DNA from: Blasia pusilla
Lineage: Eukaryota
NCBI GenBank assembly: GCA_050084515.1
Contig: CM114271.1
Location: forward strand, 21,452,001 to 21,516,000
DNA: 64,000 nt
Direction: 5' to 3'
A model generated the notes under the pieces. That model was not told the origin of the DNA, ran no database searches, and saw only the letters and a list, made by a program, of their open reading frames with translations. Within the stretch, counting starts at the first letter, position 1; each line of letters starts with the position of its first letter. This document shows, piece after piece, positions 8,838 through 63,890 of this stretch. The position numbers and the translations under genes are program-made.

Positions 8838-9748
8838 TTGTGTTCCATCCCTTTCTCACATCTTTTAGGGTAAAGTAGATTGATGATCTTCAAAATCTGC
8901 AACGTACAATGCTGATTTAGGGCTGAAACACTTCGGGTGGTAATTAGGTGGCTGGAGCTGGACACATACAGCGGGAGGTAGCGGTGCCAAGTGAAGACCA
9001 GCATGCTGATGTGGATGGCGGAGACTTTCATTCTACTCCGCTGCCCCTTTTCTCGACTCCGGCATTGGATGCGTTAGAAATGGAAACTTTGTCCACAAGT
9101 GGAGCTACTGCGGGGCGACATTAGAGTTGCAACTGCATCATGTAATGACATGAACCAAGATAATATGCCTCTAAAACTTCTTTCACAATTTTGATAGACT
9201 ATAGACATATTTTGAACCTACTCAAGAGTGTAAATTTACATGTGTTGGTACATTGTTTGATAGATAGCCGGCTGTTGGAAATTGTGCAGATTCTGTATAA
9301 AATGTTGACTATCTTTGAGGATGAACCTATGGCCTTCGCATGCTGATGTGCCATGGAATGCTTTGAATTTATAGATGGACGGCGGCTGCTTCAGGTTTTG
9401 CAGTTTTGCATTGAGCACCCCAACAGAGGCTATCGGTCGGACAATTTTGTTCCTCATCTACGGCGGCTGCTAGAGTTTGTCAGTTTTGCAGACCTTCCTT
9501 GAGCACTACAACACGGAGCTACAACAGGTTAGACAACCTTATTTCTGTAACTTCAATGACGGTGTCCTTGTATTTATGCAATTTGGCATGTCGGCATGTC
9601 CTAAAGGTGAAGTTGTGTGCATGTATTTATGCAATTTGGCATGTTGGCATGTCCTAAAGGTGAAGTTGTTGATTTGTTCTGTGCAGATGCGGGATGTATG
9701 ATGGCAATGAGGGAAGGATGGAAACGTTCTATGCTAGTTCCCCCCCCC

Positions 9749-10498
9749 GGTTGCCCCAGGGTTAGATGTAACTTAAAGAAATCCCACATGTACTCTGAAA
9801 TTGCCTTTTTTATGAAAAGTCGAAGTGCATACTGTGATATGTGTTGTTCCCATTGTACGTTCGACATTTTGTATGGCTTATCGCATTCAACCAAGTCCTG
9901 CAAGTCTTGTCGACAATCTGTTTCTGTCGACACTCTTTTTCTGTATGCTCATCCCTTTCCTCCCAAGTTGCCCCAGGGTTAGATGTAACTTAAAGAAATC
10001 CCACATGTACTCTGAAATTGCCTTTTTTATGAAAAGTCGAAGTGCATACTATGATGTGTTGTTCCCATTGTGCGTTCGACATTTTGTATGGCTTATCGCA
10101 TTCAACCAAGTCCTGCAAGTCTCGACAACTTTATCGACACTACACTCTTTTCGTATGCTAATCCCTTTCCTCCCAGGTTGCCCCAGGGTTAGATGTAACT
10201 TAAAGAAATCCCACATGTACTCTGAAATTGCCTTTTTTATGAAAAGTCGAAGTGCATACTGTGATATGTGTTGTTCCCATTGTGCGTTCGACATTTTGTA
10301 TGGCTTATCGCATTCAACTTTCGACACTCCTGTATGCTAATCCCTTTCCTCCCAGGTTGCCCCAAGGTTAGATGTAACTTAAAGAAATCCCACATGTACT
10401 CTGCAATTGCCTTTTTTATGAAAAGTCGAAGTGCATACTGTGATATGTGTTGTTCCCAATGTGCGTTCGACATTTTGTATGGCTTATCGCATTCAACC
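9749..10498. repeat. Four-copy tandem repeat (periods ~180-220 bp) between the convergent MULE genes
   Basis: GTTGCCCCA(G/A)GGTTAGATGTAACTTAAAGAAATCCCACATGTACTCTG... starts at ~9749, 9967, 10176 and 10355. Confidence 0.95.
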
Positions 10499-11324
10499 AA
10501 CCGATACCACTCCTGTCCACAATCTAAATCTGTATGTTTGGTTTGTTACTAATGGTCTTCTATACTTGTTGAGGTTCTAAACATAGCCTAGTACATATCC
10601 ATGGACTTGGAACACTGTTTGTGAGGTGTTCAACAAAATGAACATTGGAGCTACGATGTTCATCTTGCATATGCTTTGTTTCACTACATATCACCGCATA
10701 CGCGTATTATAGACAAGTCGTTGTTGCACTTCAACATTATTTAACGGCTAATCGTTTCACATGATTATTTTAGCGACGAATTTAGGATCAACTAAGTTAG
10801 CTGTGGTAGGGTCGACGCCGCTAAAACTTTACGAAGAGGGACATGGCTCAAGGGTAGGGTTGGGAGCGTGTCCAAAGCGTTTTTTTCTAGTCAAGCCTAT
10901 CTTCTTTAGTTACAACTACTTTAGAGGAATCTCTATATGAAGAAAGTGGCGGTGTTTTGCCTCTACGGCGTGGAACACGACGCAATATAGCTGCGCCCCC
11001 CTGTACGTGGTTAAGCCTCCAATGTGGAATGGTGCGCGCGCGCGGTATGCCTGCCCGACCTGGTTAAGAAGTGCATAAGTGAGATCACGGGATCCGAATG
11101 GGATCTTGTCAGAGCTGCCATCGCGGTAGAAACCAAACTTGATTCAAAAGGTTTTATTCAAGAATGCACAACATAATAAGGGATGAACACATGTTTTCAA
11201 GTGTTCGATTTAAAAACATGCAGAACACTGTATATCATGTGTTCCCGTGTAACACCTCCTACTTTGTGTTACAAGGACGTTTCAACGCTTTACTTCACAG
11301 TATTAAAGGACATTCAATTGGCTT

Positions 11325-14888: not shown

Positions 14889-15301
14889 ATAGTATAAACC
14901 GTAGTCAGGTTGAGGTTCAGCTCTGCGCACCGAAGCCTTCTTTATCCGTCTAAAGCTTGAATTTGAAGAAACTCTGGTTTAATCCTCTACGTTTAGCTAA
15001 TCCAAACACGCAGCTATTCGGATCCAATGCCCGAACATTTCGGAATCCAAAATCTTCTTAATCCGAAAAATGATTCTTAAACGGCACTAAAAATAGTATA
15101 AAACGTACTCAGGTAGAAGTTCAACTCATTCGCTCTGTGCACCGAACAGAGCCTTTTTATCCGTCAAAAGCTTGCATTCGAAGAAACTCTGGTTTTTTCT
15201 TCTACGTTTAGCTAATCCGAACACGTAGCTATTCGGATCCAATGCCCGAACATTTTGGAACATCCAATCCCTGATCGACGAAAGCTCTTCTTAATCCGAA
15301 A
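14889..15301. repeat. Direct duplication (~180-210 bp x2) upstream of the transposase
   Basis: ATAGTATAAA...GAAGAAACTCTGGTTT...GCTATTCGGATCCAATGCCCGAACATTT...CTTCTTAATCCGAAAA occurs at ~14889-15070 and ~15093-15301. Confidence 0.85.
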
Positions 15302-20086: not shown

Positions 20087-20191
20087 CTAGTATAAGCCCG
20101 TGCGATGCACATGTTTACATTATCTCCTATTGATTGAGAATGTGAATAATTGCATTGGTTGAAAGTGCCAAGTGGAGAGAATTTAGGAATG
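20087..20191 (-). mobile_element. Helitron 3' end (hairpin + CTAG), apparently interrupted by the Gypsy insertion
   Basis: Minus strand reads ...GTGCATCGCACGGGCTTATACTAG|T, the typical Helitron 3' hairpin-CTAG followed by T; 5' end not located. Confidence 0.55.
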
Positions 20192-20674
20192 TGTCACATC
20201 TGAGTAGCCGATAGGCCGAGATCTATCGTGGATAGGGCGTAGGAGCCAACGGACTATCTTGAGTGTACCTTTGTCCCACGGTGTCAGATGAGGTTGAGGA
20301 TAGGTCCATTGTGTCAGGAACGTCGTTTCTGACAACTTTCATGTTGAGGTCTTTTATAGCCGGATGACTTGTTGACCAGGTCAACCGCCCCTGGTAACCT
20401 GTGCGCACAGGTTACCAAGGGGAGGGCTATTTTTAGGGGAAGAGCCTTTTGGCTCTTCCCAACCCTATATAAGAGAGGAAGATGGCTTTCCTAAGCCATC
20501 TTTCTCATGTTGGGCCGTTGGAGCACCTCCCTTGTATGTGTGTGAGCTAGGACTAGGGTGCTATCGTCCGGATTCCTTGATAGCATAGGGTGGACGAGGC
20601 TCAATATGCCGATGTAGATTGAGGAGTGGAGTTTTAGGCCGGGTGTGCCGTTTTCACTACTCTTTATTTTTACA
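20192..20674 (+). repeat. Repeat A1 (5' LTR-like; TG...CA; TATA box at 20466-20472)
   Basis: Near-identical to 29271-29752 and homologous to 63211-63676. Confidence 0.93.
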
Positions 20675-20685
20675 TGAGAAAGATG
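20672..20685 (+). promoter_or_regulatory. Putative self-priming primer-binding site
   Basis: ACATGAGAAAGATG is the exact reverse complement of CATCTTTCTCATGT (20497-20510), ~30 nt downstream of the TATA start. No TGG tRNA-type PBS is present. The pairing is conserved in the 63211 copy. Confidence 0.75.
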
Positions 20686-21869
20686 TCACGGGGCTGGTGG
20701 AAATTTGTTGTTTGTAGGTAGGCAAGCGAGTTGCCTTGGTCGGGAGCCCCAAGAGACGCGTGTGTTGCGGGTGTTTTTCATTTTTCTATTCGGAAGGCCG
20801 TGGGCGGAAGCGCTGTCCATTTTTCTCAGATTTTGCTGGTGCGGATTGATGGGGAACAGCAGCCGAGTGTAGTGTGTGGTGGAGCGTCGGGTGTACGCGA
20901 GTGAGGGTGTCGAGAGAGAGAAGAAATGAGAGTCAGGGCGCAGACAGACGGGCGGCGACGGGAGCTAACGGGTGGCAATAGACGGGCGGCGGATGGCGGA
21001 CAGCGGACAGCGGGTGGCAACGGCGGATGGTGGGTGGCAACAGCGGACGGCGGGCAGCCATGGCGCGGCCCCCCTTCCCCCCGGGCATTTATTACACCGC
21101 CCCGCCCCCTCCAACGTGGTAGGATTGGAGCGGCCGTGGTTGGTAGGACGGACGAGGTTAATCCGGCGAACATGAGTTGAGATTTTCCGGACATGATTGG
21201 GAGCCAACCAGGGTGAGTCACGTTACATGCCACGCGTGGGGATAGATAGAGAGGTTTGCGTGACATGATGTTTTGGGGCGCGACAGGGCGTTACGAGAGT
21301 TGACGATGGAGGGGCAGTGTGCATGATGCCAACGGGTTGTCCGCATCTGTTGACGGGAGGATCGACGTGTTGGTCGAGGAGAGTGTTGTGTTGCGGAGAT
21401 TGTCATATCATATGGAGGAGTGCATGTTGACGGTGCAGCAGGTTGGAGGGCGTGATCAGGTTACCCATTCGAGTCCCTTTTCCCGCACTTGTCGTGTGTG
21501 ATTGAGAGTGCTGGGTATCGGGTAGTAGGTGGTGCTAGGTGGGTGCAGTGATGGTGACGAGTGTAGATTCTTTTCATGTGTAGCATTTTGGTGGATATAC
21601 GGCGGTTGCCGAGTAGGGATCACGTGTATGACCCGAGAGAGTTTCGCTAGGTTAATTGAGTCAGTTGGGAGGCTCATGGTGAGCCCGAGTGTTGAGCGTG
21701 CGTGAAGCCGGGTATGTCATCACGGGATTGATGTTAGCATAGGTGAGCTAGTAAGGCGTGTGGGAGACTCTCAGTGAGTCTGAGTGCTTGAGCGGGTGAG
21801 ACAGGGTTTGTCATCACTGCGTTCTTCTAGGGTTCGGAAGAACGGGGTAGTGCGAGCAGTAGTAGTGGT

Positions 21870-23918
21870 GTGACACGGAGTGGAGTGAGATACCGAGGGG
21901 TTACCAGTGAGGAGCTCCCTCGACATCCATCCGTGACTGGATCTTCATCACTGGACACTGGGTCTGGTGACGAGATCACAGACAGAGACAGTAGTACTTG
22001 GCAAGAGATGGACGACATGGGGCATCGGGGCATGCGTCGTTTCTCGGGTGTAGTGGGCACTATCGACTTAGATGATTTTATCCAGGAGTTCGACACATGG
22101 TGCGACTTCCAGGAGATACAAACCCCGACACGGTTCAACCCTTTCATGGCATGGAAGGGGTTGTTTCAGCACTTGGAGGGTCCTCCGATGGATGACTACA
22201 TGGAGTTTCGATCACTATATTCAGAAGAGATCGATGCCTGGAGGATGTATTGGGCTCCAGGGTATGTGTCCACTAGTGGTCGCGAGGCTTATGATGGGAT
22301 TGTGAGAAAAGAGAGACCCACACCATCAGCCCGGAGACTAGATGGAGAGGAGGGCAGTGAGACTCGCGATGTGGCAGAGACCTCTGGTGGTAGAGGGCCA
22401 CCTAGCTTCAGCCCCACAGTAGAGTTCTTTCGACAGTTGGGGAAGAGCTACCAGGGCGTACGCACCGATAAGCTGAAGAGTCTACAGGATTTTCAACGAC
22501 GATCGGGTGAGAGTCTGAGAGAGGCATTCACACGCATGAGAAGGCTGATCATTGCTACGTTTGGAGTGACTGAGGCAAAGTCAGTCTAGTATTGGTACGG
22601 GGTTCTGGACCGAGAACTACGGAGGAGAGTCCGAGATGCGGTGCTGATTCACACAGCAAAGCCCACATTGAAGGTGGTCTTTGAGTTGTCTCGAGCGTAT
22701 TGAGCTCAACATGAGTGAGGAGCGGTAGTGACCGCTGATTTTCTTGAGAGTCGACGGGTCCCTGGCGATGGTGACCCAACAGTGTGCCAACGAGCACCCG
22801 TACCACGGAGCGGGCGGTGTGCCTAGAGAGAGCGGGCGGGTACCGTGAGCCTATGAGACAACGACCCGTACCTACATATGTTGCCCAAAGACCAGGACCG
22901 ATGTGGTCTTGTTGGGCGTGTGGAGGGGCCCATAGGCGAGAGAGGCGCCCACAAAGCATGGGAGAGGACCACGGCGCCTCAAATTGCTCAGGAGCCACAA
23001 AGGATGGCCCCACCACAGCACCAGTGTGACCATCGCCACAGATATGGTCACACTAGGGATAGATGTTTTGACCTTCGCCGAGGGGCACGTCCAGAGGTAG
23101 GCCGAGGGCCTGGGGGCGGTCGTCCTAGAGGAGGTCGGGGAGTTCTTCCTGGACGTGATGGTAGAGGACCACCACCAACCAGAGGAGATGGATCAGGAGC
23201 ACCAGAGCCGGCACTTCTCTCACGCATCGATCAGTTGGAGCAGAGGATTGCTACCATGACGATGATGCAGCTTAGGCAAGGCACGGAGCTGCGAGCAGCT
23301 AGTGTGACTCCAGCTTCTACCTCTTACCCTGACCTGGGTGAGGATCTCGCCATTATGGGATTTATGTGTAGTGCAGCCCAGGTTGAGGCACCTGCAGTGG
23401 TGACTCGGGGTGCTGCGAGAGGCACCGAGCCATCGAGAGGTGGAGTTGAGATTGACCCACCAGAGGGGACCGATGGGCGGCAGGCCAGGGTTCCACAGTC
23501 GTTCATATTGTTGGAGGCACTACACACACCATCGATGGTGCCTCGACAACCAGAGGTGCCTACAGTTCAGACACCTACGTCGACGTCACGAGGAGTTGGA
23601 GTGACAACTCCTATGCCGGCTCGAGTGGAGTCAGTGTCGACCATGGTGTTGGAGGTGGCCACTAGAGTGAGTCAGACTCCGCTATTTTCCGCCATAGAGT
23701 TGGCGATGTTGGGAGTTGGACCAGCTGAGGTGTTCCGGTTGGCCACCACCATGTGTGAGCGTGGAGAGATGACTGCTTCTTGTTCAGAGGTAGTTGAGGA
23801 GGTGGTGGACTTGCCCTCAGAGCTGGTGTTTGGGACGTTCCCCATAGAGTCATGGCATGCGGCGGCGGCGGTTGATAGATATGCCCACTCGACCATAGCC
23901 ATAGAGCGGCGGTGGTGA
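21870..23918 (+). pseudogene. Gypsy gag region (retrotransposon gag domain plus degenerate zinc knuckles)
   Basis: RFSGVVGTIDLDDFIQEFDTWC; FQRRSGESLREAFTRMRRLI; SCWACGGAH and QCDHRHRYGHTRDRC knuckle relics; interrupted by stops and frameshifts. Confidence 0.75.
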
Positions 23919-23989
23919 CACATGGAGTAGTGTTACTGGATAATCGAGCTTGAGTATTTCGCTTGGTTAGTCCGACGAGGACAGTATAC

Positions 23990-24330
23990 CACCTGCAACG
24001 CGTCCTACTTGATTCGGGAGCGCAACCCTTGATGTTAGGGAAGGCGGCGTGTTTAGCGTTGGGGTTACGGAAGGCCGACATTGAGCCTTGTCCCTTCCAG
24101 ATACAGACCTCGATTGGGGGCGTATCACCCACTCAGTAAATGACTCGACAGGAGATTGTTGTCAGAGTCCAGCCAGAGCAAGCGACGGATAGTGCTATGG
24201 TGCGCACACGTGCGATAACGACACCAGCTGAGTCGTATGATGTGTTGGTGGGGAGTACAGTGTTATATCCCCTAGGATTCATCCTTGACTTCTGGGAGGA
24301 GACCGTTGCTTATCGGCCAGGATGGCGGTC
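23990..24330 (+). pseudogene. Retropepsin aspartic protease domain
   Basis: VLLDSGAQPLMLG at 24002-24040 and YDVLVGS C-terminal motif. Confidence 0.85.
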
Positions 24331-24727
24331 AAGTGACGGTCGAATGAGTCAGTTACCCGTGCAGTTTGCGGGACGAGGTGGTCGATCATGAGGCGAGTCT
24401 ATGACCACGTTGGCAGCTTTCATAGGTAGTGTTAGCTGGCCAGGAGAGTTGGTGGAGGGGAATGCACATGCGGAGGATGTCCCAGTAGCGGATAGTCCCA
24501 TGGAGAGACAAGCCATGGCGGGTGTCGCTTCCCATGTTGGTGAGGCCTCTTCACCATTGTGGGGTACGACTCGAGAGCTACAGAGGAGTGCCGACGACCT
24601 CGTGAGGCAGGCGTGGAGTCATGTTTTTATCCCACAGCCGCGAGAGTCACGTGGCGATCAGGCTCTTGGAGTGGAGACGATGACCCCGCTAGATACCACA
24701 CCTGTTGTGTGGCAGTGCCGAAAGGAG

Positions 24728-25680
24728 GATGTTAGGGTGTTAGATCTCTTTGGAGGGATAAGCACCGGATTGGTTGCACTATTGCAGGCAGGCATAAGGG
24801 TGCATCAGTACGTTTATGTGGAGAGATATGAGACCGCGCGGCGAGTATCATTACGTCACATGGCGAGATTGGTCCAGAGGTATCTTGAGTTGTTGCGGTA
24901 TCGTAACGGGGATATCAAAGATACGCTACCCGCCGACATCTCTTTGGTGGGGGCGTAGGATGGATAGAGTTGGCACCATTCATTTGGTGATTGCTGGATG
25001 GCCATGTCAGGGTCATTCATCAACTGGCCGAGGATTTGGATTGCAGGATCCGAGGTCAGGGATGTTTTGGGAGATGCTGCGAGTATTACAACACTTGCAG
25101 GAGAGTCAGATATGTTCTCCAGCGTACATTTTGGAGAGCGTGCCGTTGTTGGGAGACACTCGTGCACGTGTGATGACGAGTGTACATCAGGTGAGGTCCT
25201 GGTTGGGACCTGTGGTGTTGTTAGATGCAGCGAGAGTTGGGTCACGTGCCCATCGTCCACGATTGTGATGGACGAACCTGATACCATCGAGGTCTTGAGT
25301 CGAGCAGCATACGGTGGAGTCTAGAGAGCACCACATCTCATAGTGGATGCTATTTTGGGCTCAGGGCGTCAATCTAAGGTGGTGACACGGGATGATAGAC
25401 CACCGTTGGCCATGGCCAATAGGGTGGGGGAGTTGAGGGCAGCCTTACCTACGTTGGTGAGCTTCCCAGCATCCCATGCCTTTTGTCAGGGAGGGCCAGG
25501 CATGATTTGGGATGAGGTGACCGGAGCATTGGAGGAGCCTACAGCACATGAGCGCGAGCGCGCCATGGGGTTCACTACCGGTACTACGGCGGTGCTAGGG
25601 ATGACTGAGGCATCACGGAGATAGGTGTTGGGGCAGGCAATGGACCTCAACTGTCTCACATGGATAGTCAGCCTAGGTAT
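24728..25680 (+). pseudogene. DNMT3-like DNA cytosine-5 methyltransferase domain within pol
   Basis: Motif I VRVLDLFGGISTGL, II YVYVE, IV AGWPCQGHS (PC at 25002-25007), V DPRSGMFWEM, VI YILESVP, VII/VIII DAARVGSRAHRPRL*WTNL, IX ERERAMGF and X VLGQAMD, all in canonical order. Confidence 0.92.
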
Positions 25681-26099
25681 GGCTGAGCAGAGACGGATGC
25701 GAGTGTCATCCATGCCGTCACGTCCACGAGTTGGACCATTGCCTACCGGGTCTGTACAGGCATTGGCTGGGGGCAAGACGAGGAGAGATAGGCACCCATG
25801 GACTTCTTGGGACGTCGTTCAAGCAGAGAGTGTGAAGGCGGCTAGAGTAGCACATGTTCATTTTTCGGATGTGGAGCATGGTATAGGAGGTCAGAGTGGA
25901 GTGGCTGTTGCGGAGGTGGCTAGGGTTGCTACATAGCATCCAAAGCCAGAGGTTGCGTCCTCTCCGAGTGAGGTCACGATGGAGACTTGGGAGCTTGTGA
26001 TAGGTCTCAAGTTGATAGGAGGAGAGCGACGGCGAGTTCATAGGTTTCTGAGGGGGCATGTCACTTGTTTTGCCTTCAGTATGAGAGACTTGGGTACGC

Positions 26100-27420
26100 T
26101 GAAGGGTCCCGGGATACGGATTGAGTTGGCTAGTGATACGCCGATCTTTCGTCAACCCTACAGGTATTTTGATATGGAGCGAGCCTTGATTCAGAGCAAA
26201 AGTCAAGACTTGTTGAGGCGGGACTTGTGGAGTTATCACATGGGGAGTATGCATCTGCCACAGTCATGCCGGCGAAGAAGGATATGTATGGCAATTGGAC
26301 GGATAGGCGGATGTGTGGAGATTACCGTCCTATCAACCGACAGACGAGGTCAGATCGGTGTGCCATGCCTACTCCTGAGGAGATCTTTGATGCGGTAGGG
26401 CATGCAAAGATCTTTAGTACTTTAGATCTCCGTGTTGGCTATCATCAGCTTCCTATCAGGTTGGAGGACAGGGAGAAGAAACTGACGTGCAGGGGATAGA
26501 TCGGTTCGGGAGAGATTGCTTGTATCAGTGGCGGTTCTTACCATTTGGGTTGAAGAACGCGCCTGTAGAGTTTTAGAGAGTGATGGATAGGATTCTAGCT
26601 GGCTTGGATTTTGTACGATGTTACATAGATGATATTCTTATCTTCAATTCCACGGTTGAGGAGCATGAGCGACACTTGGAGGTGTTTCGGAGATTACAGT
26701 TACATGGACTGAAGTTACATCCAGGCAAGTGCAGATTCTTTCGGGAGCAGATTGAGTACTTGGGACACACCATATACCCGAGTGGGTTAGGCGTTTAGCA
26801 GACGAAGGTAGAGGCTATTGCGTAGATTCCACGCCCTACAGATGTGAGTCGAGTCCGAGCATTTCTTGGACTGGCGAACTTCTATCGACGGTATGTCAAG
26901 GGTTTTAGTGCGATCGCAAAGTCTTTGACCTTGTTGACGAGACTTGATCAGGTGTGGTTGTGGGGAGATGATCAGGAGCGAGCATTTCAGGAGCTCAAGG
27001 ACAGGTTGACGTCCTCACCCATTTTACAGAGACCGGTTAGGGGTCAACCATTCCAGTTACATACCGATTGGAGCATGTTGGGTCTACGAGCAATGCTTAC
27101 TCAGAGGGATGACGAGGAGAGGGAGTTTGTTGTGGCTTACGCGAGCCGATTGAACAACATTGTAGAGGCGAAGTACAGCTCCTACGAGGGAGAGTGCTTG
27201 GCTGCAGTGTGGGCCGTGGCACATTTTAGGTGTTATTTATTCGGCAACCCTTTCACACTTATCAGTGATCATCAGCCATTGAGGTGGTTGATGGAGTCCG
27301 ACAAGCTTACGGGAAAGCTTGCCATGTGGGCTCTATTACCACATGAGTATGAGTTTGAGGTGGTTCATAGGCCAGGTCAGTTGAACCAGGATGCGGATGG
27401 GTTGAGTCGTAACCCATGTC
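26100..27420 (+). pseudogene. Gypsy reverse transcriptase and RNase H
   Basis: RMCGDYRPIN, STLDLRVGYHQL, LPFGLKNAP, YIDD (26622), FLGLANFYRRYV, LHTDWS, YEGECLAAVWA, SDHQPL, DADGLSR. Confidence 0.97.
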
Positions 27421-27799
27421 CGAGTCAGAGAGACGACACAGGAGCTCGATGGCACGGAGAGAGTGATGAGGAGATGGTGCCCGGTTGGCATGCATCTACC
27501 TATCTTTGTTGGTTGACTATGGCATGTCAGCCACAGGTGATGACTCCAGTGGTGGGGTTGGATGATGAGTCTTTGGATCCGGAGGTTAGTGAGGAGGCGA
27601 CATGTGGTCGTGATATCCATGACGACGTGGAGGTTGTGGAGTTCTTGCGCATTGGCGTCATTGCAAGTACAGTGAGTGCTAGGGAGCGGGATCGGATCCT
27701 ACAGAGAGCCAAGAGGTTCAAGTGGGAGGGGACTCACATTTTGCGGGTATGGGGAGATGGTAGGATACGAGTGATACCTCATTCTTCCCAGCGAGCATG

Positions 27800-28706
27800 T
27801 GTAGTGCAACATGCCCATGAGGAGTTGGGACATTTCGGAGTAAAGCGTACTTACAGCTTACTCCAGGTTCAGTATTGGTGGCACGGCATGCATACTCGGG
27901 TACAACAGTTTGTGGCCACACGTATGGTATGTGATAGAGTGCGAGCATCCTTCAATGCTCCCACTCCGCAGTTACATCCTTTGCCGATTATGGGTTTAGG
28001 TTATCGGTGGAGTTTAGACTTTGCGGGACCTTTGCCATTGACAGGGCGTCATCATAGGTACGTGTTGGTCATGGGGGAGCATTTCTCCAAGTGGATAGAG
28101 TTGGTGGCACTACCAGACAAGGCGAGCGAGGGAACACCTTATGCGTTCCTAGATCGTGTGCTTAGTCACTTTGGTGCACTGGCGGAGGTGTTGACTCACA
28201 AGGGTACCAAGTTCAGGGGAGAGTTTTAGGCCTTGTGTGATCAGGCGCTGATAGATCACCGCACCACGTCCAGAGATCATCCTGAGGCGGATGGGTTGGC
28301 GGAGAGAGTGGTACAGACGGTGAAGAGAGGATCGCGCAAGTATGGCTTGCAGCGGGGACAGTTGAGGGAGTGGGACCTACAGTTGTTATGGTTGGCTATG
28401 GGTTATCGCTTTAGTCGGCAGGCATCCTTGGCGTCATTTTCATCATACTTTTTGCTCTTTGGGAGAGAGCCAGATTTACTTGCAGCAATTTGACGTGACA
28501 TGGCGGAGGTGTTAGATCTTGATGATCCAGATGTGTGGGTACAAGCATGTTCTCAGAGGGCAGAAGTTTTTCGTAGAGTTATGCCTATGGCCTTTGAGAA
28601 CTTAGCTATTGCCCAACATAGAGATACATTGAGGTACGCGACCATTCGTGGAGGAGGTTATCGTCCAGGGATTATGAGGTTTCATCCTGGAGATTACGTG
28701 TATTAA
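27800..28706 (+). pseudogene. Retroviral-type DDE integrase (HHCC-like zinc region + rve core)
   Basis: HAHEELGHFG...WW; WSLDFAGPLP; EHFSKWIE; HRTTSRDHPEADGLAERVVQTVK. Confidence 0.95.
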
Positions 28707-28910
28707 CAGCACGCGGCACCCACGACGCTAGATGTCACTATAGGGCGCACGATCCTACGTGTGTACGAGGTATTACCGATTGGAGTCCTCATGTTGGAGG
28801 GACGGGATGGTATGGTTTGGAAGGATCATATGCACAATTGTGCGCCATATCATCTTCCGAACGTAGATGGGACGGTGGATCCGAGCTTGGCAGTGGTACC
28901 TGCAGGCTTG

Positions 28911-29054
28911 AGGTGTATGTTGTGCGGATCTGCGAGGGATGCAGCCACCATGTTGGTATGTGATGGTTGTTCTCGAGGGTGGCATATGTCATGTCTGACC
29001 TCCCCTCTTGATGTGGTTCCCACAGGACGATGGATGTGTCCGAGATGTGTATAG
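28911..29054 (+). pseudogene. PHD finger at the C-terminus of pol
   Basis: RCMLCGSARDAATMLVCDGCSRGWHMSCLTSPLDVVPTGRWMCPRC, an intact C4HC3 pattern with terminal W-x-C-x2-C. Confidence 0.93.
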
Positions 29055-29121
29055 GGTAGTAGGTCATCTTAGAGAGATGTGATATTTTCTATCTGGAGTT
29101 GGGGGGATCCAACTGCCAGCT

Positions 29122-29131
29122 AGGGGGACGG
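29122..29131 (+). promoter_or_regulatory. Polypurine-tract-like sequence preceding repeat B1
   Basis: AGGGGGACGG immediately before TTGTGTG; no comparable tract precedes A2. Confidence 0.6.
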
Positions 29132-29268
29132 TTGTGTGATCACCATATATATGTATGAGTTGATTTTTGTACATTTGTGGATCAACCCGTGTGTGGGGAA
29201 GATCGATGTTGTGTGGTGTAGATGTGACCAGCGATGTATGTTGTGTAGCGATATGTATGCGCATGACA
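29131..29268 (+). repeat. Repeat B1 (138 bp)
   Basis: Direct repeat of 29753-29890, about 8 substitutions by manual comparison. Confidence 0.93.
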
Positions 29269-29270
29269 GT

Positions 29271-29752
29271 TGTCACATCTGAGTAGCCGATAGGCCGAGA
29301 TCTATCGTGGATAGGGCGTAGGAGCCAACGGACTATCTTGAGTGTACCTTTGTCCCACTGTGTCAGATGAGGTTGAGGATAGGTCCATTGTGTCAGGAAC
29401 GTCGTTTCTGACAACTTTCATGTTGAGGTCTTTTACTGCCGGATGACTTGTTGACCAGGTCAACCGCCCCAGTAACTGTCTGTGTCTTGAAGAGTTACCA
29501 AGGGAGGGCTATTTTTAGGGAAGAGCCTTTTGGCTCTTCCCAACCCTATATAAGAGAGGAAGATGGCTTTCCTAAGCCATCTTTCTCATGTTGGGCCGTT
29601 GGAGCACCTCCCTTGTATGTGTGTGAGCTAGGACTAGGGTGATATCGTCCGGATTCCTTGATAGCACAGGGTGGACGAGGCTCGATATGCCGATGTAGAT
29701 TGAGGAGTGGAGTTTTAGGCCGGGTGTGCCATTTTTACTAGTCTTTATTTTT
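29271..29752 (+). repeat. Repeat A2
   Basis: Direct repeat of 20192-20671; lacks the terminal ACA and runs straight into B2. Confidence 0.93.
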
Positions 29753-29890
29753 GTTGTGTAATCTCCATGTATATGTATGAGTTGATTTTTGTACATGTGT
29801 GGATCGACCCGTGTGTGGGGAAGATCGGTGTTGTGTGGTGTAGATGTGACCAGCGATGTATGTTGTGTAGCGATATGTATGCGAACGACA
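29753..29890 (+). repeat. Repeat B2, the right terminus of the element
   Basis: Ends GCGAACGACA, followed by the AATG TSD. Confidence 0.9.
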
Positions 29891-30829
29891 AATGAGAAGG
29901 AAGCAAAAAGAGAGTAGATTGATACACACCAATTTAATCCAAAAAATGAGGGAAAAACTGTATCCCAAAATACTACATCAAGATCCATGGTTCAAACAAA
30001 CACAAGAGATCATATTTTGTGCTTGATAAACCCCCTTAAGATGACCTAGGTAGAAAATGACGTTTACTTGTAGGGGCTATAAATACTTTGATTTCGGGAT
30101 GAGTTTTTTGAGTTTGGATTTTTAATGATATGATGTATAGCATGATAGTATTTACTAATAGTTTTGTTGGGAAAACCTTGTGTGATAGGTTTTATTCCAA
30201 AAAAACTTTAAATTAGGAGGATTCGACATAAAATAGTTGTTCCATTCTTAATTCTAGCTTAGACTCAACTTGTTTGACCCTCAAGATTTATTTATTTTTC
30301 CATTTAGGTCAAGAATTTTCAAAGTTCTTGGGATCTTGGACTTTCTCCTTTCGTGAGACTCACTGTGCTCATGGATCCCTAGACACAATTCCACACATTA
30401 CATTCTTTTTATGGAATGACCGTCATTTACAATTAAAACAAAGGATTCCTCTTACTTTTCTCAATCTTTTGGTATGTAATCCCCCAAAAATTACTCATTC
30501 ATCCCTTTATGTTAATCAATAGTGGGTAACTTTCACTTTCTCCACATACCCTCTTTTACGTATTTACAATTTTCTCGGTTAGTTTCTCCTCAAGTCTCCG
30601 ATTGGGGTGTGTTTGGTTTTGTTACAATTATCTTAGGGAGTTAGTTCTTTTCATATCATTTCTTCCTTATTTTTTGGTGCAGATATGTTTATTTCTCCCA
30701 CACATCTTTCTTATTTTTCAACATGTTACCTCATTCTTTTACCCTTGCAATCCTTATTAATAGTTGCTTGGCTTGGAGATGTCTTTTCCTACCTCCAATT
30801 ACTCCTCAATATCCATGAGTGATGGACTA

Positions 30830-41219: not shown

Positions 41220-41680
41220 TTATGAGTAGATGAAGGCGATTTCCTTGGAGATTCTAATATGTGTAGACACATGGTTGGAAATTGGATCTATTTGCTTATT
41301 ACTAGGCTGGACTTGAACTACGCAATCAATCTAGTGAGCCAATTCATGCAAACGCCTCAAAACCTTAAAATAATGCCGTGAGGAGAATTATGCGATATAT
41401 AAAATTCTCTTTCGTTTTGGATTTCAATTTAAACCTTCTCCTTTTAATTTTGTATTTATAGATGTTGATTGGATAGGAAGCGGATGTGATGGACACTTGA
41501 CATCTGGTTATTCTTTCATCTTGGGAAGCGAAGTTATAAATTGGGCTTCAAAGAAGCAACCTGTCGTTCGCACACACATCTACACACCACACAATACTTA
41601 TCTCCCCCAAAACACCGGTAGATCCACACATGTACAAATCATTATGTCTTTATCTCGTACTGAAGGGATTGTTATAAAGT
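41220..41680 (+). pseudogene. Copia RT/RNase H relic
   Basis: IYLLITRLDLNYAINLVSQFMQTP; DVDWIG...TSGYSFILGSEVINWASKKQP..MSLSRTE. Confidence 0.8.
41562..41636 (-). mobile_element. 75-bp insertion homologous to the 3' part of repeat B of the DNMT-Gypsy family
   Basis: Reverse complement TGTACATGTGTGGATC...GTGTGGTGTGTAGATGTG...GCGAACGACA; flanks AACC/AATC; splits the Copia KKQP motif. Confidence 0.7.
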
Positions 41681-49500: not shown

Positions 49501-52500
49501 GGACGATCCCAATCGTCTATCCGCCAGGGCCTACGTGGTTTCAAAAAGTAGTGCCACCCTTGGGACTAAAAATTGGTACTATGACTGCATGGAGTGGCTC
49601 ATGAAATGGGGAATATCCATCGGTGACCTGCCTACGGCCACCCACCAGGACCTTGCTGAACAATTACACAACAATTACATTGCCATCAATTGGGGCCGAC
49701 ACCAGCGTCTCTGGGAAAGTGAGAAAATGACTGACCAGCAGAAGTATCTCCTTGTACAAAGTCAGAGCTAGCATCAGCTAGACCATCCATGATTTCAGCT
49801 TGTACACAATCAGCAAATCAGTTTCTATCTCTATTGCCAAATCAGAGCCCTACCATGATGTGACTCTTCTTATTATCTAAGAGATACTAAGAAGGATTCT
49901 ACACAGTCACACCTTGCACTCACACTACAGATCCTCACATGTCACCAGCTCAGAGATCAGACATGGCTCACCTCATTGAGCACAAACAATCTCCATCAGC
50001 ATACTAGACAAAACAATCTGCCTTCCAGTGAGGCTTTAGCAAGCACAGCAATTAGTCTCAATCTCCTCTTCCTACTCTCTGATCACTCTGCAGCAGGACA
50101 AAGAGCCTCAGGAGTTCTCACCAAAACTGTGCATGCTGTAGAATTGGCTTCTGCTCTCTAAACAGAGACATTATATACATGAGGGTGAGCACTTCTGGCC
50201 CTTAGATCTTCTTGAACAGATCCATACCCTAAATAACAGATGGTGGCTAGCCCTAACTCGAGAATTGCCCTAATTCAAGGTTACCCTAAAAAGATAGAGG
50301 AACACTAAGTTATCTCTAGCTAATTAAATTAGTATCCAACTAAGTTAGTATTTGACTAACTACTTTTAGGGCATGACTAAACTAGATATTAACAAATTTC
50401 AACAGAAAGCAGGGGGAATTCCTCTCACAAAAATGGTGAAAGAATGAGGCGCTACCACACCCTCATGAACAACTGCAGATCCATGCAGCAAGCCTCCTAC
50501 ATCTCTGCCCCCATTCCCACTAAGTTACGTCATACATTAGCGAGATTCAGACGTGGCTCTACTGACCTGGAGATTGAGAAAGGAAAATTCTCACAGAAGA
50601 AAAGGCAGGACAGATTATGTAGATTTTGCAACTCGGGGCTTGTTGATGATGAACATCACTACCTCTTCGACTGCACCTTTCACGATCACATTAGGCTTGA
50701 CTTCCCGGATCTCTTTGTTCACCGAGCTCCCAGGGTCCTCCCGTTCATGACTAGGCAGAATCAGACTCAGATAGCTAAATTCTTGCATAGTTGTGTGAAG
50801 ACCAGGGACACTCACCTGGCTCTGAGGACCCCTTAGGCCCTCGCTGGTGCTTGCTCTCTCTCCAAATTTGTTGTTAAGTCCCAGTACTAAGTCCCAGGGC
50901 CCTGTGGGGTCCCCGTGGACAATAAATCTATTCATTCATTTATTCTCTCTCTCTCTCTCAACCTCTAGTACGACAGGCACTACTTAATGAGTACAGTCTC
51001 TCAACCTCTAGTCATTACTTGGTCTCCTGCGCAAAATTCACAACACACAGAGCAAGAGCATATGCTGATATTGCTAAGCTGGTAGCACCAGAATTGTTCA
51101 ACACATTCAGTAGGCTTGATTCATTGCCCAAAGCTGCTGCACTGGTAAGTAATGTCTATTGGGGATCCCAATCAGGTAAAGTAGATGGTGTGGTGAAGAG
51201 TTTCTTGGTTGACACTTGGAAGCTCCGCACAAACACGTTGTTTGGTCAGCACTCACACTATATGAGAGTGTCTCCCTCCTCTCATATGGTACCTTCTTCA
51301 CTTGCTTCTCTCTCTACACCCATCCCAGTCTCAAGCACCGTCCAACCAGGGCGCGGGGTCTATGGTCGCAAGGCTACGACAGGCACTACTTAATGAGGAG
51401 ACACTCTCATATGGTACCTTCTTCACTTGCTTCTCTCTCTACACCCATCCCAGTCTCAGGCACCGTCCAACCAGGGCGCGGGGTCTATGGTCGCAAGGCT
51501 ACGACAGGCACTACTTAATGAGTACAGTCTCTCAACCAGGGCGCGGGGTCTATGGTCGCAAGGCTACGACAGGCACTACTTAATGAGTACAGTCTCTCCT
51601 CACAGAGCAAGAGCATATGCTGATATTGCTAAGCTGGTAGCACCAGAATTGTTCAACACATTCAGTAGGCTTGATTCATTGCCCAAAGCTGCTGCACTGG
51701 TAAGTAATGTCTATTGGGGATCCCAATCAGGTAAAGTAGATGGTGTGGTGAAGAGTTTCTTGGTTGACACTTGGAAGCTCCGCACAAACACGTTGTTTGG
51801 TCAGCACTCACACTATATGAGAGTGTCTCCCTCCTCTCATATGGTACCTTCTTCACTTGCTTCTCTCTCTACACCCATCCCAGTCTCAAGCACCGTCCAA
51901 CCAGGGCGCGGGGTCTATGGTCGCAAGGCTACGACAGGCACTACTTAATGAGTACAGTCTCTCTAATTGTGCACGCCGTTGAGTTGACTGTATCTCCCCA
52001 CAGCCCAGTAGGACAAACGCAATGGCAGGAGCCTAAACGCAATAGAAATTTTTAGCGAAGTTGGGACTATAATCCTGAGTTACGACATTAGACATCTTCA
52101 ATGTGGTCTTTGTGGGTTTAAATGTGCCAGGGATCATTTTCATACCTTAATTTACATTCCCACAAATTATAATTTGTTTGGTGGGTAATCTCATTTTGGA
52201 CTGAACCCGCCTTTGCTTTTTCCATTGCTACGGCTTAGGGTGGCTGTGAGAGTTTTGTGATGAAGGAGAATGACTGCAGCAGAGAATTAATCCAAATTGT
52301 TGCTGTACTATCACCTAATTTGAGATACTATACAAGAGTCACAAGTACAATGTATGGAAGGGATCTTGTGCAGGCATATTTTGGAATTCACGGAGCACTT
52401 GGAACACGATTATTTAATGTTGTTACCCGTATGAGAAAGGAGAAATGTCTCTACTTTGAGGACCTAGTCATTGCTAAGGTAAACTTAGATCAAGTGAATT

Positions 52501-55500
52501 GGCTTTATTTATTTGCAAATTTCTATGTTGTTTGTCAAGTGTTCCACGATTATCACAGTAGCTTGTTCTCTTAAGGATTTGAGGTGCCTTCTGGTTTTCT
52601 ATTGGCTTTTGTTTGCATGATGGGTCTGTTACTGCACGCTCATAGTCAAGCTGGGCGCGAGTAGATGCTGGTGTCAATTTTGGTAGTTGGGAATTATCAA
52701 GCACAAACCGACACTTCTAAGTCATGAGTTTGTCTGAATTGAGAACATTTCTGGATCTCTATAAAAAGGGTTTGGATTATCTTGGATTCCTGTGTTGTGT
52801 TTTTTGCTTAAACTATATAGGTGTCTTTTGTGTTGCTACACCATAACTGGAGTCGTTTGGAAACTACCGTGGCCCCATAGAGGCTACATCTTTAAGTGCT
52901 AGTTGATACAACGTACTGGCCAGCCTTTCAAGAGATTTTTTTGGTCTCACGCTTTTGTCTTTTTGTGATGTCTGGTCAATTTCATTTAATTTATTCTGTG
53001 ACATTGATTGTGTAGTCAACTTATGAGAAAGGTGGACCTGGTGAAATTGAGGATTTTCAGTTTCAACTCTTAGATTTGGTTGGAGATGGCAAAGTACAGA
53101 GGTCAGTACTTCCTTGCTCACAAAGCAGGAGAGGAGATTTGAAATTGGTTGTGTTTGGGATTATGCTATATGAATGGAAATGCACTTGTGTATGTTTCTT
53201 TCTTTCTTTCACAGCGACATTCGCTCCCAATGTCCTTGTGTTTCAGATTAGTAGCATCCTGAGCAACGGGATGGATGTAACAAAATGCCACAAATGCATA
53301 TTGTCTCTTTGATATCAGTGACAATGTAGAAGCCGGTGGGACCACGAGAGCAAAGGACGAGAAATATTGTGGGAAAAGGGGGGCAAAACTTGCCTTAATT
53401 TAAAGTCTCTGTATCCAACAGATGTGGCTAGTGTTAGCACACTTGATTGTACTAGATTGTATCTGTGGTAATTGTAAGATTGGTTTGGTTCCTATGAATC
53501 CAGAACAGAGGTGGAGGGTGTCATGCTTGCAATATTGGAGACTGTGCTCGGCCCAAGTGATGCAGTTGTGGGTGCAGGCCTTCCAGAGGACGTCTTACGA
53601 GCCTTTTTAAATGCAGCAGAATTTTCTTTGCAACCAGAAAATGATGGCGAGGAGCCTTGTATGTCCTTGCAAGACTTTCGGAAGTGGTGCAGCCTCATAC
53701 CATCCATCAAAAAGTTCCTCGGCTCTCTCTTGAAGGTTCCAACTGTAGGTGAAGGTGATAATATTTCGTTCATTATCCTTCTGTACATCTTTCTTCCAAC
53801 TTCCTGTTCAAATTTTGTAGTATCATCTCATTTTGCAGATGTCAAAGACTGAGAATAGCATCGATGATGAGATAAATTGGGAGACGAGTCAATGTGAGAA
53901 TTGCGGAATGAATTGAAATTGCGTTTGTACTCTCTGTGTTCTCTGTATTGATAGATTGAAAAGTCAATACATAAGTAGCAAAGTCTGCTCTAAACTAAGA
54001 GCCGTAATCAAAAGACGTGACGGTAACTGTGTCACTTCAGAAATGTCTCATAGCTATGTATCGTTTCGCAAGATGAAATGTTACTAGCAGTAATCAATGG
54101 TCATAAACAGAACATTGATCCTAATCTAATCTAGATCGTTCGTATGGATTGATCCGTGTGATCAATTCTTGGATCAGTACTCTGATGATTTGTTTCGCTG
54201 GACTAATTGATTTCCTACACTCCCACTCAGGGGAACAAATCAGCCATTTTCATTACTTGTTAACCCTAGAGATTTAGTATGTTTCTGATGAGGTCCTTTC
54301 TGTAAACCCTTAGTAAAAATGTCTGCAGTCATCTCTGCAGTTGAAATATAGGTCAAAATAATTTCGCCACTTGATACTTGATCTTTGATATAGTGGTATT
54401 GAATGTCGATGTGTTTGGTGCGGTCATGATGTTTTGTAGAACTGACCAAAGCAATAGCACTTTGGTTGTCACAGAAGATCTCAGTTATCTTCTGAGCAAA
54501 ACCAATTTCGTTAAGTAATCTTCTGATCCAAATAGCTTCAGTGCTAGTTTTAGTCATTGCAATGTACTCAGACTCGGTCCTTGAAAGAGCAACTGACTTC
54601 TGTTTTCTACTTGCCCAACTAATTGCTCCTCCTGCAAGGAGAAAGCAAAATCCGCTAGTAGATTTTTGGGAGTCGATATTGTCTCCATAGGCAGCATCAG
54701 AATATCCTTGAAGATGAAAAGGAGTAGATGAGCGCTGATATTGGAGAAAGTAATGTTTTGTCCCTTGCAGATACCTGAAAATACGTTTGACAGCAGTCCA
54801 GTGTATAGGACCAGGATTGGTCATGAACTGTGCAACAGTGCTAACAGAATAGGCAATATCGGGGCGAGTGCACACCATTGCCCACATTAAACTGCCTGTA
54901 GCACTTTTATAAGGAATAGAAGACATTGCTGCAATGTCAGCAGGATGAACAGGAGATTGATCTTGACTAAGATGAAGGCCAAAATCAAAGGGAGTGGAGA
55001 TAGGTTTGCAGCCCAGCATGTTGAACTGTTTGAGTTTGTTGGTGATGTAAGTCGTCTGGTTGAGCCTGATCCATCCTTGTTGTCGGTCTCGTTGGATATG
55101 AATTCCCAGAACATGGTAAGCTTCACTGAGATCAGTCATTTCAAACTCTTGGCGGAGCTTCGTTTTGACAAAATGAAGCAGCGCAGAACTGGAGCTTGCG
55201 ATGACAGTGTCATCCACGTAGAGAGCAAGGATCAGAAAATTGGAGTCCTTGTTCAGAATGTAAATATTAGAGTCAGCAGTGGTGCTGACGAAACCAATGT
55301 CTAGTAAAACATAGTGACAGCGTTCATACCACATACGGGCTGATTGCTTCAAACCATAAATGGACCTTTCGAGAAGGCAGACCAAGTTATTATGGGGAAC
55401 TGGCAAGCCTGGAGGAAGGGCCATGTAGATCTTGTGTTGCAGGAATCCATATAGAAAAGCAGCGATTACATCTAATTGATGTAAGTCCAGGTTGAAATAA

Positions 55501-63210: not shown

Positions 63211-63890
63211 TATCACATCTTAGTATCCGATAGGTAGAGATCTATCGTGGCGAACTAAAAAAGCCAGCGGACTGTTTTTGAGTGTAGCTTTGTCCCGACG
63301 TGTCGAATGAGGTTGAGGATAGGTCTGTTGTGTCAAGAACATCGTTTCTGACAACTTTCCTGTTGGGTTCTTTCACAACCGGATGACTTGTTCAGCAGGT
63401 CACCACCCATGGTAAATTGTGCGCGCAGGTTACCGAGGGGGTTGCTATTTTTAGGTCTCATACCTATATAAGGGAGGAAAATGGCTTTCCCAAGCCATCT
63501 TTCTCATGTTGGGCCGTTGGAGGTTCATTCTTGCTCGGATGTGTGAGTTAGGATTGGTTACTTGCGTCTGGATTCCTTGATAGCACAGGGTGGACGAGGT
63601 TCGATATGTCGATGTAGATTGAGGAGAGGAGTTTTAGGCCGGGTGTGTCATTTTTACTCTTATTTTTACTTTTACATGAGAAAGATACGAGGGGGCAGGG
63701 GGAATTCGTTGTTTGCAGGTAGGCAAGCAAGTTGCCTCGGTTGGGAGCTCTTGGAGGCGCCAATTGGCGTTTGCTTTGTCAATTTTTCGTTCGGAAGGCC
63801 GTGTGCGGAAGCGCTGTTCATGTTTCGTAGATTTCGTTGGTGCATATTGACGAGAACGAGTCTCCGAGTGTAGCACGGAGGATGGCGGCA
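63211..63890 (+). mobile_element. Diverged 5' end (repeat A plus leader) of a second DNMT-Gypsy family member
   Basis: Colinear with 20192-~20870, including the TATA box, the CATCTTTCTCATGT / ACATGAGAAAGAT pair and downstream leader; begins at the same boundary. Confidence 0.88.

Follow-up and report, generated by a model that had tools for sequence, protein, structure and literature searches.

A decayed Ty3/gypsy-type retrotransposon of Blasia pusilla with split direct repeats and integrase-type ends inside its predicted long terminal repeat

Retroviruses and retrotransposons with long terminal repeats (LTRs) insert linear complementary DNA (cDNA) by way of the LTR tips, and two-LTR circles count as dead ends. 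Retroelements of the DIRS order, which use a tyrosine recombinase, are not known to duplicate their target site on insertion. A split-repeat layout, A1-[open reading frames]-B1A2B2, in which A and B are two different direct repeats, is the defining layout of Ngaro, PAT and VIPER in the passages available of PMC8547959, PMC4157794 and PMC6681497. DIRS-like repeats together with Gypsy domains are given for KnitGypsy-Dnmt3 of Klebsormidium nitens in the legend of Figure 4c of de Mendoza et al. 2018 (PMC5890265, seen in part). An element of this latter kind is described here from Blasia pusilla (assembly GCA_050084515.1, contig CM114271.1, positions 21,452,001 to 21,516,000 of the forward strand). 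This stretch of 64,000 nucleotides is called the window, and the element occupies its positions 20192 to 29890.

The first-pass annotation of the window had assumed that split repeats on a Gypsy element were novel; the layout had already been stated for KnitGypsy-Dnmt3 (PMC5890265, in the parts available), and the window element is a new member of a kind whose repeat layout is in print. The two elements share, as far as those parts go, a Gypsy-type Pol, a C5 cytosine DNA methyltransferase (DNMT) domain, which is Dnmt3-like in KnitGypsy-Dnmt3, and DIRS-like repeats. They differ in that the window element has a fragment of the DNMT only and is closer to proteins of Marchantia polymorpha (59-69 % identity) and of metagenome contigs (up to 71 %). 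The available passages of PMC5890265 give no duplications, primer site, LTR definition or mechanism, and its supplements may hold more. In the literature search, the name KnitGypsy was found in that one paper only, and a search for split direct repeats in combination with Gypsy elements, retrotransposons or integrases yielded nothing beyond general reviews and work on tyrosine-recombinase elements; supplements of PMC5890265 and PMC6317226 may bear on repeats and primer sites. The present analysis adds 4-bp duplications next to the start of A1 and the end of B2, a predicted self-primer with covariation across clades, a definition of the LTR as B-NN-A (NN being a dinucleotide spacer), the contrast between a fixed site and a variable joint, and the polarity of the permutation.

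The element is read, with a probability of roughly 0.6, as an old, decayed, self-priming Ty3/gypsy-type element with the LTR B-NN-A, which was integrated as a circular permutation by head-to-tail joining of cDNA and an internal cut by its integrase. Its gene order is gag, DNMT, reverse transcriptase (RT), RNase H, DDE integrase and PHD finger, and its lineage is a streptophyte one related to KnitGypsy-Dnmt3. Integrase-type ends and duplications lie at the internal LTR site GACA-NN-TGTCA and not at the LTR tips. The integrated copy, A1-int-B1-NN-A2|B2 (int, internal region), is a circular permutation that retains the end-to-end joint of U5 and U3.

Repeat finding, blastn and direct reading of the sequence bore out the positions first given for A1, B1, the 2-nt spacer, A2 and B2, as well as the TGTC...GACA ends and the AATG duplication (Table 1). 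The A copies were aligned over 485 columns, and the B copies are 94.2 % identical over 138 columns. The right limit of A1 is the one boundary that moved: it had been placed at 20674, the homology of A1 with A2 stops at 20671 (…TTTTT), and the next three bases, ACA, open the primer-binding site (PBS). The whole unit starts TGTCAC and ends CGACA, with AATG outside both ends; B1 ends CATGACA and is followed by GT and by the A2 start TGTCAC. A G-rich tract, CTAGGGGGAC (29120-29129), lies 1 nt upstream of B1; it precedes B1 and not A2, as had been noted from the start. In place of the two equal LTRs of Ty3/gypsy elements, the left end is A only and the right end is B-NN-A-B, with the PBS after A1 and the G-run before B1.

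A second, diverged copy (78 % identity) begins at 63211 with A, continues into the same post-A sequence and is cut by the window end. Nothing B-like was found upstream of it by blastn and reading, as the first-pass annotation had said; the copy starts TTATCAC, its TG being mutated. A tblastn search with 15 open reading frames (ORFs) of the element revealed no further coding relative in the rest of the window.

Relatives were collected by searching metagenome contigs with a profile of the RNase H-integrase (RH-INT) region, which gave 484 related stretches; the best 80 were developed into loci. These form two clades, with about 58-71 % and 42-48 % identity to the window protein. The A/B structure of each locus was determined by self-comparison and by blastn with A and B references, and duplicate loci were removed by their 3' flanks. 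The int-B-NN-A-B arrangement was present at 18 independent loci, and at 16 the internal region ran through B directly into flanking DNA (A-int-B copies); one pair of loci had both forms. Metagenome relatives and raw reads took the place of the genome-wide tabulation of copies that had been proposed as a check; no equal LTRs of the type A...A or BA...BA were seen among the relatives. Exceptions were two loci with B-NN-A and no detectable B2 (L043, L079), two partial ones (L060, L007) and L028, which is described below. Eight elements were full-length, A...B-NN-A-B, with ends TGTCATG...ACA. Six of them are flanked by perfect 4-bp duplications (AAGG, GGTC, CCAA, ATGT, TGAC and AATC), and in the remaining two the duplication matches at three of four bases. 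Among the A-int-B copies, 4-bp duplications were found in three of four that could be scored (L008, L068 and L080, all perfect). The split-repeat layout is a trait of a widespread lineage, seen in two clades and in independent assemblies.

The near equality of the two forms raises the question of which one is inserted. It would be improbable that the primary insertion is A-int-B, made from linear cDNA or a one-LTR circle at two internal sites, with B-NN-A-B as a rarer form and the sole replicating product, even though there are 16 independent A-int-B loci beside 18 full forms and the A-int-B copies carry duplications at their own ends. Against it stands one insertion that was recovered in both forms: L059 (A...B-NN-A-B) and L080 (A-int-B) have a common 5' flank, the duplication CCAA and 3' flanks 96.8 % identical, so deletion after insertion occurs. 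This suggests that A-int-B copies arise at least sometimes by later deletion between B1 and B2. The depth ratio of A to internal region in the window's own genome, about 1.9, also leaves little room for a primary A-int-B form unless it is offset by solo A-B units. Such units are expected as recombination products of split-repeat tyrosine-recombinase elements (PMC8547959, in the passages available).

The family in its own genome was assessed by mapping raw reads of run X22 to positions 28700-30100 at a likeness of at least 85 %; the classes of loose read ends given here are those among the rows listed. Parts of the window also occur in several sequencing runs labelled as air metagenomes, which do not enter the results given here. 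Read depth was about 1-2 in unique flank, about 1000 in the internal region, about 1850-2200 over most of A and about 800 at each B start, which indicates a family of several hundred members, each internal region being accompanied by roughly two copies of A and two of B. From the end of A, 551 reads continued into sequence that opens with ACATGAGAAAGATG (agreement 0.84), reproducing the A|internal joint of A1; the consensus of these loose ends starts with the 14-nt PBS. From the B ends, 623 and 640 reads ran into unrelated flanks (agreement 0.34 and 0.38), and no class of A ends running into diverse flanks was among the rows listed. The A|B joint was crossed by contigs from other copies (X1, records 4-7), and B-NN-A by contigs X2, record 12, and X6, record 20, the latter under a different organism label.

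A one-off rearrangement or misassembly, in which the 3' end of an ordinary LTR element was locally duplicated or misbuilt, can hardly be the explanation. It draws on the fact that no read or contig among those listed spans the exact locus of the element or covers its whole 3' repeat block there. The same junctions nevertheless recur in hundreds of copies in the raw reads and at the 18 loci of other assemblies, in two clades with 42-71 % protein identity; the 5' structure is repeated in the window's second copy, and a conventional copia element in the same window was assembled normally, with equal LTRs and a 5-bp duplication. The arrangement is a family trait and not an accident, as the first-pass annotation had favoured.

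Two further observations were made on the X22 reads. In about 1950 reads, the match is limited to the final ~40 nt of B (29229-29268, 29851-29890), upstream of which they have a different, GT-rich sequence; they therefore point to a sister subfamily with a common B end and integrase site and another B body. Differences between family copies over 28700-29890 are mainly C>T (88 of 340 listed places) and G>A (114), as expected from decay of methylated cytosines.

The extent of the LTR depends on where reverse transcription begins. In Tf1, reverse transcription is self-primed, the PBS being paired with the 5' end of the transcript. In the window element, the 14 nt that follow A1 are the exact reverse complement of a stretch inside A1 that lies 31 nt past a TATA box (Table 1), and all five occurrences of this 14-mer or its complement in the window lie in A copies or their primer sites. 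The first 13-16 nt of the predicted RNA would pair with the site directly after A1, and the minimum-free-energy RNA fold pairs the 5' end with the PBS (z -2.05). Pairing of 10-16 nt at the equivalent site was found at 19 of the 22 visible 5' ends (two in the window and 20 loci), the exceptions (L005, L024 and L056) being degenerate or truncated A copies; in clade 2, the pairing site lies 32-39 nt after a TATA-like box. Three groups have three unrelated primer/PBS sequence pairs, and one locus (L068) has a single compensating change from C:G to T:A. Self-priming of the Tf1 type is predicted from these pairings. Because the G-run lies before B1, the self-primer site after A1 and the TATA box in A, the reverse-transcribed LTR is taken to be B-NN-A, in keeping with the B+A unit proposed earlier; on this sequence-based definition, the U5 end is the end of A, and the U3 start is the start of B, directly after the G-run.

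Other definitions were tried and rejected. An LTR of the form A+B with a damaged 5' LTR is at odds with the 551 family reads and with all 20 relatives whose 5' end is visible, which join A directly to the PBS or internal region. An LTR consisting of A alone does not fit because the duplication flanks the end of B2 and not that of A2. A candidate tRNA-type PBS, TGGTGG, lies 24 nt after A1, does not adjoin U5 and lacks an equivalent in both L027 and L036; ARAGORN found no tRNA genes in the window.

One relative bears on the fate of the primer. In L028 (3361-3885), the PBS sequence comes after A2, and beyond it the first ~180 nt of A recur in reverse complement, up to an inverted integrase site that adjoins flank DNA. 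The structure resembles a minus-strand primer of which a DNA copy was made and integrated; split-read placement cannot explain it. Copying of the primer instead of its removal, which L028 suggests, is also reported for Tf1. In run X22, 13 reads connect the final base of the self-primer, 29591, with the terminal bases of U5, 29752/29751, on opposite strands; the shorter side of these reads measures up to 74 nt. These could represent the same primer-cDNA joint as in L028, or in part an effect of split-read placement. The Tcn1 and TAR lineages of plants are predicted to be self-priming (PMC6317226, in the passages available). The window element resembles Tf1/sushi and Tcn1 in having its PBS right after U5, complementary to the predicted transcript start, and no tRNA-type site; it differs from Tf1-type elements, which have equal LTRs with integrase ends at their tips and a chromodomain, where the window element has a PHD finger.

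With the LTR so defined, the integrated copies contain two junctions that behave differently, as the first-pass annotation had predicted for its CA-NN-TG and A2|B2 sites. The spacer in the CA-NN-TG site (...ACA-NN-T(G/A)TCA...) is 2 nt long in 23 of 23 relative loci. The spacers seen were GC, AC, GT, AT and AA; since the variants are mostly one transition from GC, the spacer looks like an inherited part of U3. An origin from target DNA, as in insertion sequence (IS) circles, was rejected, no relation between spacer and own duplication having been found in seven elements. The A2|B2 joint consists, in the window and in 12 of 19 relatives, of exactly the base before the PBS followed by the first base after the G-run tract. 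Its length differs by -2 to +20 nt in the other 7 of 19: it is 2 nt short, at an AT/AT microhomology, in L075 and L078, 1 nt short in L037 and L069, and 1 nt longer in L064; L002 has lost one U5 base and gained the last 2 nt of the G-run tract, and L019 is like L002 with an additional 18-nt insert partly repeating A. The G-run abuts B1 in 19 of 19 relatives, and this boundary shows no such change of length in the same 19 loci. B1 and B2 are on average 93.3 % identical within an element, compared with 88.3-88.5 % between elements, with no effect of position (12 elements); both B copies would therefore come from one template per cycle, as LTRs do.

Every reading frame of the window copy is broken. 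The Pfam scan covered 50 of the 60 plus-strand frame pieces of at least 35 aa, the other 10 being alternative frames inside the RH-INT and PHD ORFs. The Pol domains follow each other along the plus strand in the order RT, RNase H (PF17919/PF17917), integrase zinc finger (PF17921) and rve (PF00665); in the ORF at 26826-28229, the E values were 1e-29 for PF17919, 1.2e-12 for PF17921 and 2.1e-4 for PF00665. This is the Ty3/gypsy order RT - RNase H - DDE integrase, and it was found again in five relatives. The gag-like region contains a degenerate zinc-knuckle-like motif; its frames gave no Pfam match, and it is assigned from position and translation only. The DNMT fragment covers profile positions 62-119 of 324 and connects the family with those Gypsy elements of Klebsormidium that carry a DNMT. 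Homologues of the RNase H-integrase ORF reached up to 64 % identity; besides the Marchantia and metagenome matches given above, the named sources include K. nitens (39-46 %) and Closterium. A PHD finger is present in many homologues and PF00145 in some. Among the five long relatives, the DNMT stands before RT in two (P0019, P0043) and between RNase H and integrase in two others (P0044, P0060), and one (P0005) is without it. Fish sushi-like proteins were distant matches (42-48 % identity over about 42 % of the query).

The layout of the element is identical to that of Ngaro, PAT, TOC1 and VIPER, which in the passages available of PMC8547959, PMC4157794 and PMC6681497 is what defines Ngaro, PAT and VIPER. 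It is nonetheless very improbable that this is an element of the DIRS/Ngaro/PAT type, moved by a tyrosine recombinase via a closed circle and carrying a vestigial integrase. Those elements encode a tyrosine recombinase and not rve; no Phage_integrase match was obtained in the 50 scanned frame pieces at E values up to 0.01-0.05, no tyrosine recombinase was found by Pfam in the five long relatives, and PF00589 is in none of the 120 homologues listed, according to precomputed Pfam lists. The inverted TG...CA ends are conserved, the order RT-RH-INT is that of Gypsy, and 4-bp duplications flank the window element, six of the eight full-length relatives and three of the four A-int-B copies that could be scored. 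Membership of the DIRS order fails on the enzyme and on the duplication, the layout being shared, and the earlier assignment to Gypsy with a DDE integrase and 4-bp duplications flanking A1 on the left and B2 on the right is upheld.

These products suggest the following route. Each cycle would include a head-to-tail joining of the linear cDNA at its two termini; the integrase would cut the CA-NN-TG of the left LTR on both strands and insert the resulting ends with a 4-bp stagger. Joining before the cut would amount to a two-LTR circle or to an end-to-end jump of RT; joining after the cut would be a concerted integration of two halves followed by host end-joining. The integrated products cannot tell the two orders apart. 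Of the circle-based integration that had been proposed, the permuted product with its U5|U3 joint is upheld; the circle as substrate is not, as joining after the cut gives the same product and the opposite form was seen at 0 of 22 visible 5' ends. Only A-int-B-NN-A-B can replicate, because only this form has promoter, PBS, G-run and 3' R. Random opening of a two-LTR circle would yield both permutations equally often, so that the process appears to be polar. Faster deletion between the A copies of A-B-NN-A-int-B may contribute to the polarity, although this would predict more A-int-B copies than were found.

The same polarity would be explained if the linear cDNA already had the form NN-A-int-B-NN-A-B-NN, made by an extra template jump or an unrecognised priming event, and the integrase trimmed 2 nt from it, with neither a circle nor host end-joining. 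The fixed 2-nt spacer would then be the dinucleotide that retroviral integrases take off, end-to-end jumps are known of reverse transcriptases, and a jump would account no less well than a ligation for the microhomology and the small changes in length at A2|B2. Such a pre-permuted cDNA is possible though rather unlikely: there is no purine tract before the A start and no primer site after the B end, and in L028 an integrase site about 180 nt inside a cDNA end was used. If the plus strand jumped from the end of U5 to the start of U3, the right end would be extended, but B-NN would by this alone stay on the left, where the internal cut would still be needed.

Several points weigh against head-to-tail joining followed by an internal cut as the preferred reading. 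The route is inferred from integrated products alone, and the reading frames are broken in all copies examined, those of the window and the relatives alike. The opposite permutation, A-B-NN-A-int-B, is missing from all 22 visible 5' ends. The full form only slightly outnumbers the A-int-B copies, deletion is proven by only one pair, and some of these copies could be direct insertions from linear cDNA or one-LTR circles. In the reads of the window's own family, there was no common length variant of A2|B2 at the listing threshold of at least 5 %, which would also fit a templated joint.

IS3-family elements of the IS911 type provide a precedent for a DDE enzyme that acts on abutted ends a few bp apart and produces short target duplications. 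They differ from the window element in being DNA transposons without reverse transcription and in taking the spacer from the donor flank, whereas the spacer here looks like inherited U3. Internal cutting of palindromic LTR-LTR junctions is described for the foamy-virus and HIV-1 integrases (PMC1180852, PMC1905944, PMC4372172, in the passages available). The window element resembles the two-LTR circle junction of these viruses in its retroviral-type integrase, its internal CA...TG palindrome and ends fit for integration. In those viruses, the palindrome is made by ligation of LTR ends, and cutting restores a normal provirus; in the window element, the palindrome is a fixed feature inside each LTR, and integrated copies retain A2|B2, the ligated joint.

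It is proposed, tentatively and with the balance somewhat against it, that a whole lineage of DDE-integrase LTR elements in streptophyte algae and bryophytes has moved its integrase site inside the LTR, so that it must join its cDNA ends head to tail in each cycle, as a two-LTR circle or an equivalent. The products of the lineage break the rule of integration through LTR tips: the integrase ends are internal to the LTR, and a fossil U5|U3 joint is present in every replicating copy. The lineage offers a natural system for testing whether LTR-LTR junction forms feed integration, and it links the split repeats of DIRS, Ngaro and PAT to a mechanism independent of tyrosine recombinase. If the proposal is true, the split-repeat layout would be a general signature of junction-based integration whatever the enzyme, and an LTR-LTR junction form would have a natural case as a productive intermediate. 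LTR-finding pipelines that need two equal repeats with outer duplications probably mis-call or discard such elements, of which there are hundreds of copies here.

Table 1. Positions of the parts of the split-repeat element and of its second copy in the window.
Feature	Positions	Strand	Remarks
Left target-site duplication AATG	20188-20191	+	same four bases again at 29891-29894
A1, predicted 3' part of U3 plus R-U5 of the reverse-transcribed LTR; integrase-type end TGTCAC	20192-20671	+	95.5 % identical to A2
TATA box TATATAAG in A1	20466-20473	+	31 nt upstream of self-primer site
Predicted RNA 5' end and self-primer CATCTTTCTCATGT	20497-20510	+	5 matches in window, 0.06 expected
Predicted primer-binding site ACATGAGAAAGATG	20672-20685	+	exact reverse complement of 20497-20510
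gag-like region, two broken frames	21831-23918	+	position and reading of translation; no Pfam match
C5 cytosine DNA methyltransferase domain, fragment	24978-25166	+	PF00145, E 2.4e-7
Reverse transcriptase, broken	26173-26795	+	PF00078 (RVT_1), E 7.4e-13, match confined to 26577-26795
RNase H, integrase zinc finger and N-terminal part of DDE integrase core	26826-28229	+	Pfam; ORF ends at stop
C-terminal PHD finger	28914-29048	+	PF00628, E 2.6e-11
G-run polypurine-type tract, putative plus-strand primer site	29120-29130	+	directly before B1
B1, predicted 5' part of U3, end CATGACA	29131-29268	+	repeat alignment and reading
2-nt spacer GT in palindrome-like site CA-NN-TG	29269-29270	+	sequence reading
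A2, second A copy	29271-29752	+	repeat alignment and reading
B2, second B copy, end CGACA; joined to A2 at U5 end/U3 start	29753-29890	+	repeat alignment and reading
Right target-site duplication AATG	29891-29894	+	sequence reading
5' end of second, diverged family member, cut by window end	63211-63873	+	A, then PBS matching own primer site 13/14

An isolated B-like fragment lies on the minus strand at 41575-41638 (84 % over 64 nt); its end, ...CGAACGACA, adjoins unrelated sequence, and nothing A-like or internal was found upstream of it.

The conventional Ty1/copia element mentioned above (53892-59080, minus strand) is nearly intact and forms an internal contrast to the split-repeat element. 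It has equal LTRs of ~329 bp (TGTGAG...CCTACA, 97-98 % identical), a 5-bp duplication GTCAA and ORFs of 985 and 484 aa with gag, integrase and RVT_2. On its coding strand, TGGTATCAGAGC adjoins the LTR, which we take to be a tRNA-Met-type site. Tandem or dispersed repeat arrays were found at 9742-10533, 14941-15260 and 51046-51963, consisting of units of about 186-217 nt, of 105-nt units at a spacing of 215, and of two 300-nt copies that are spaced by 555 and contain sub-repeats of 130 nt.

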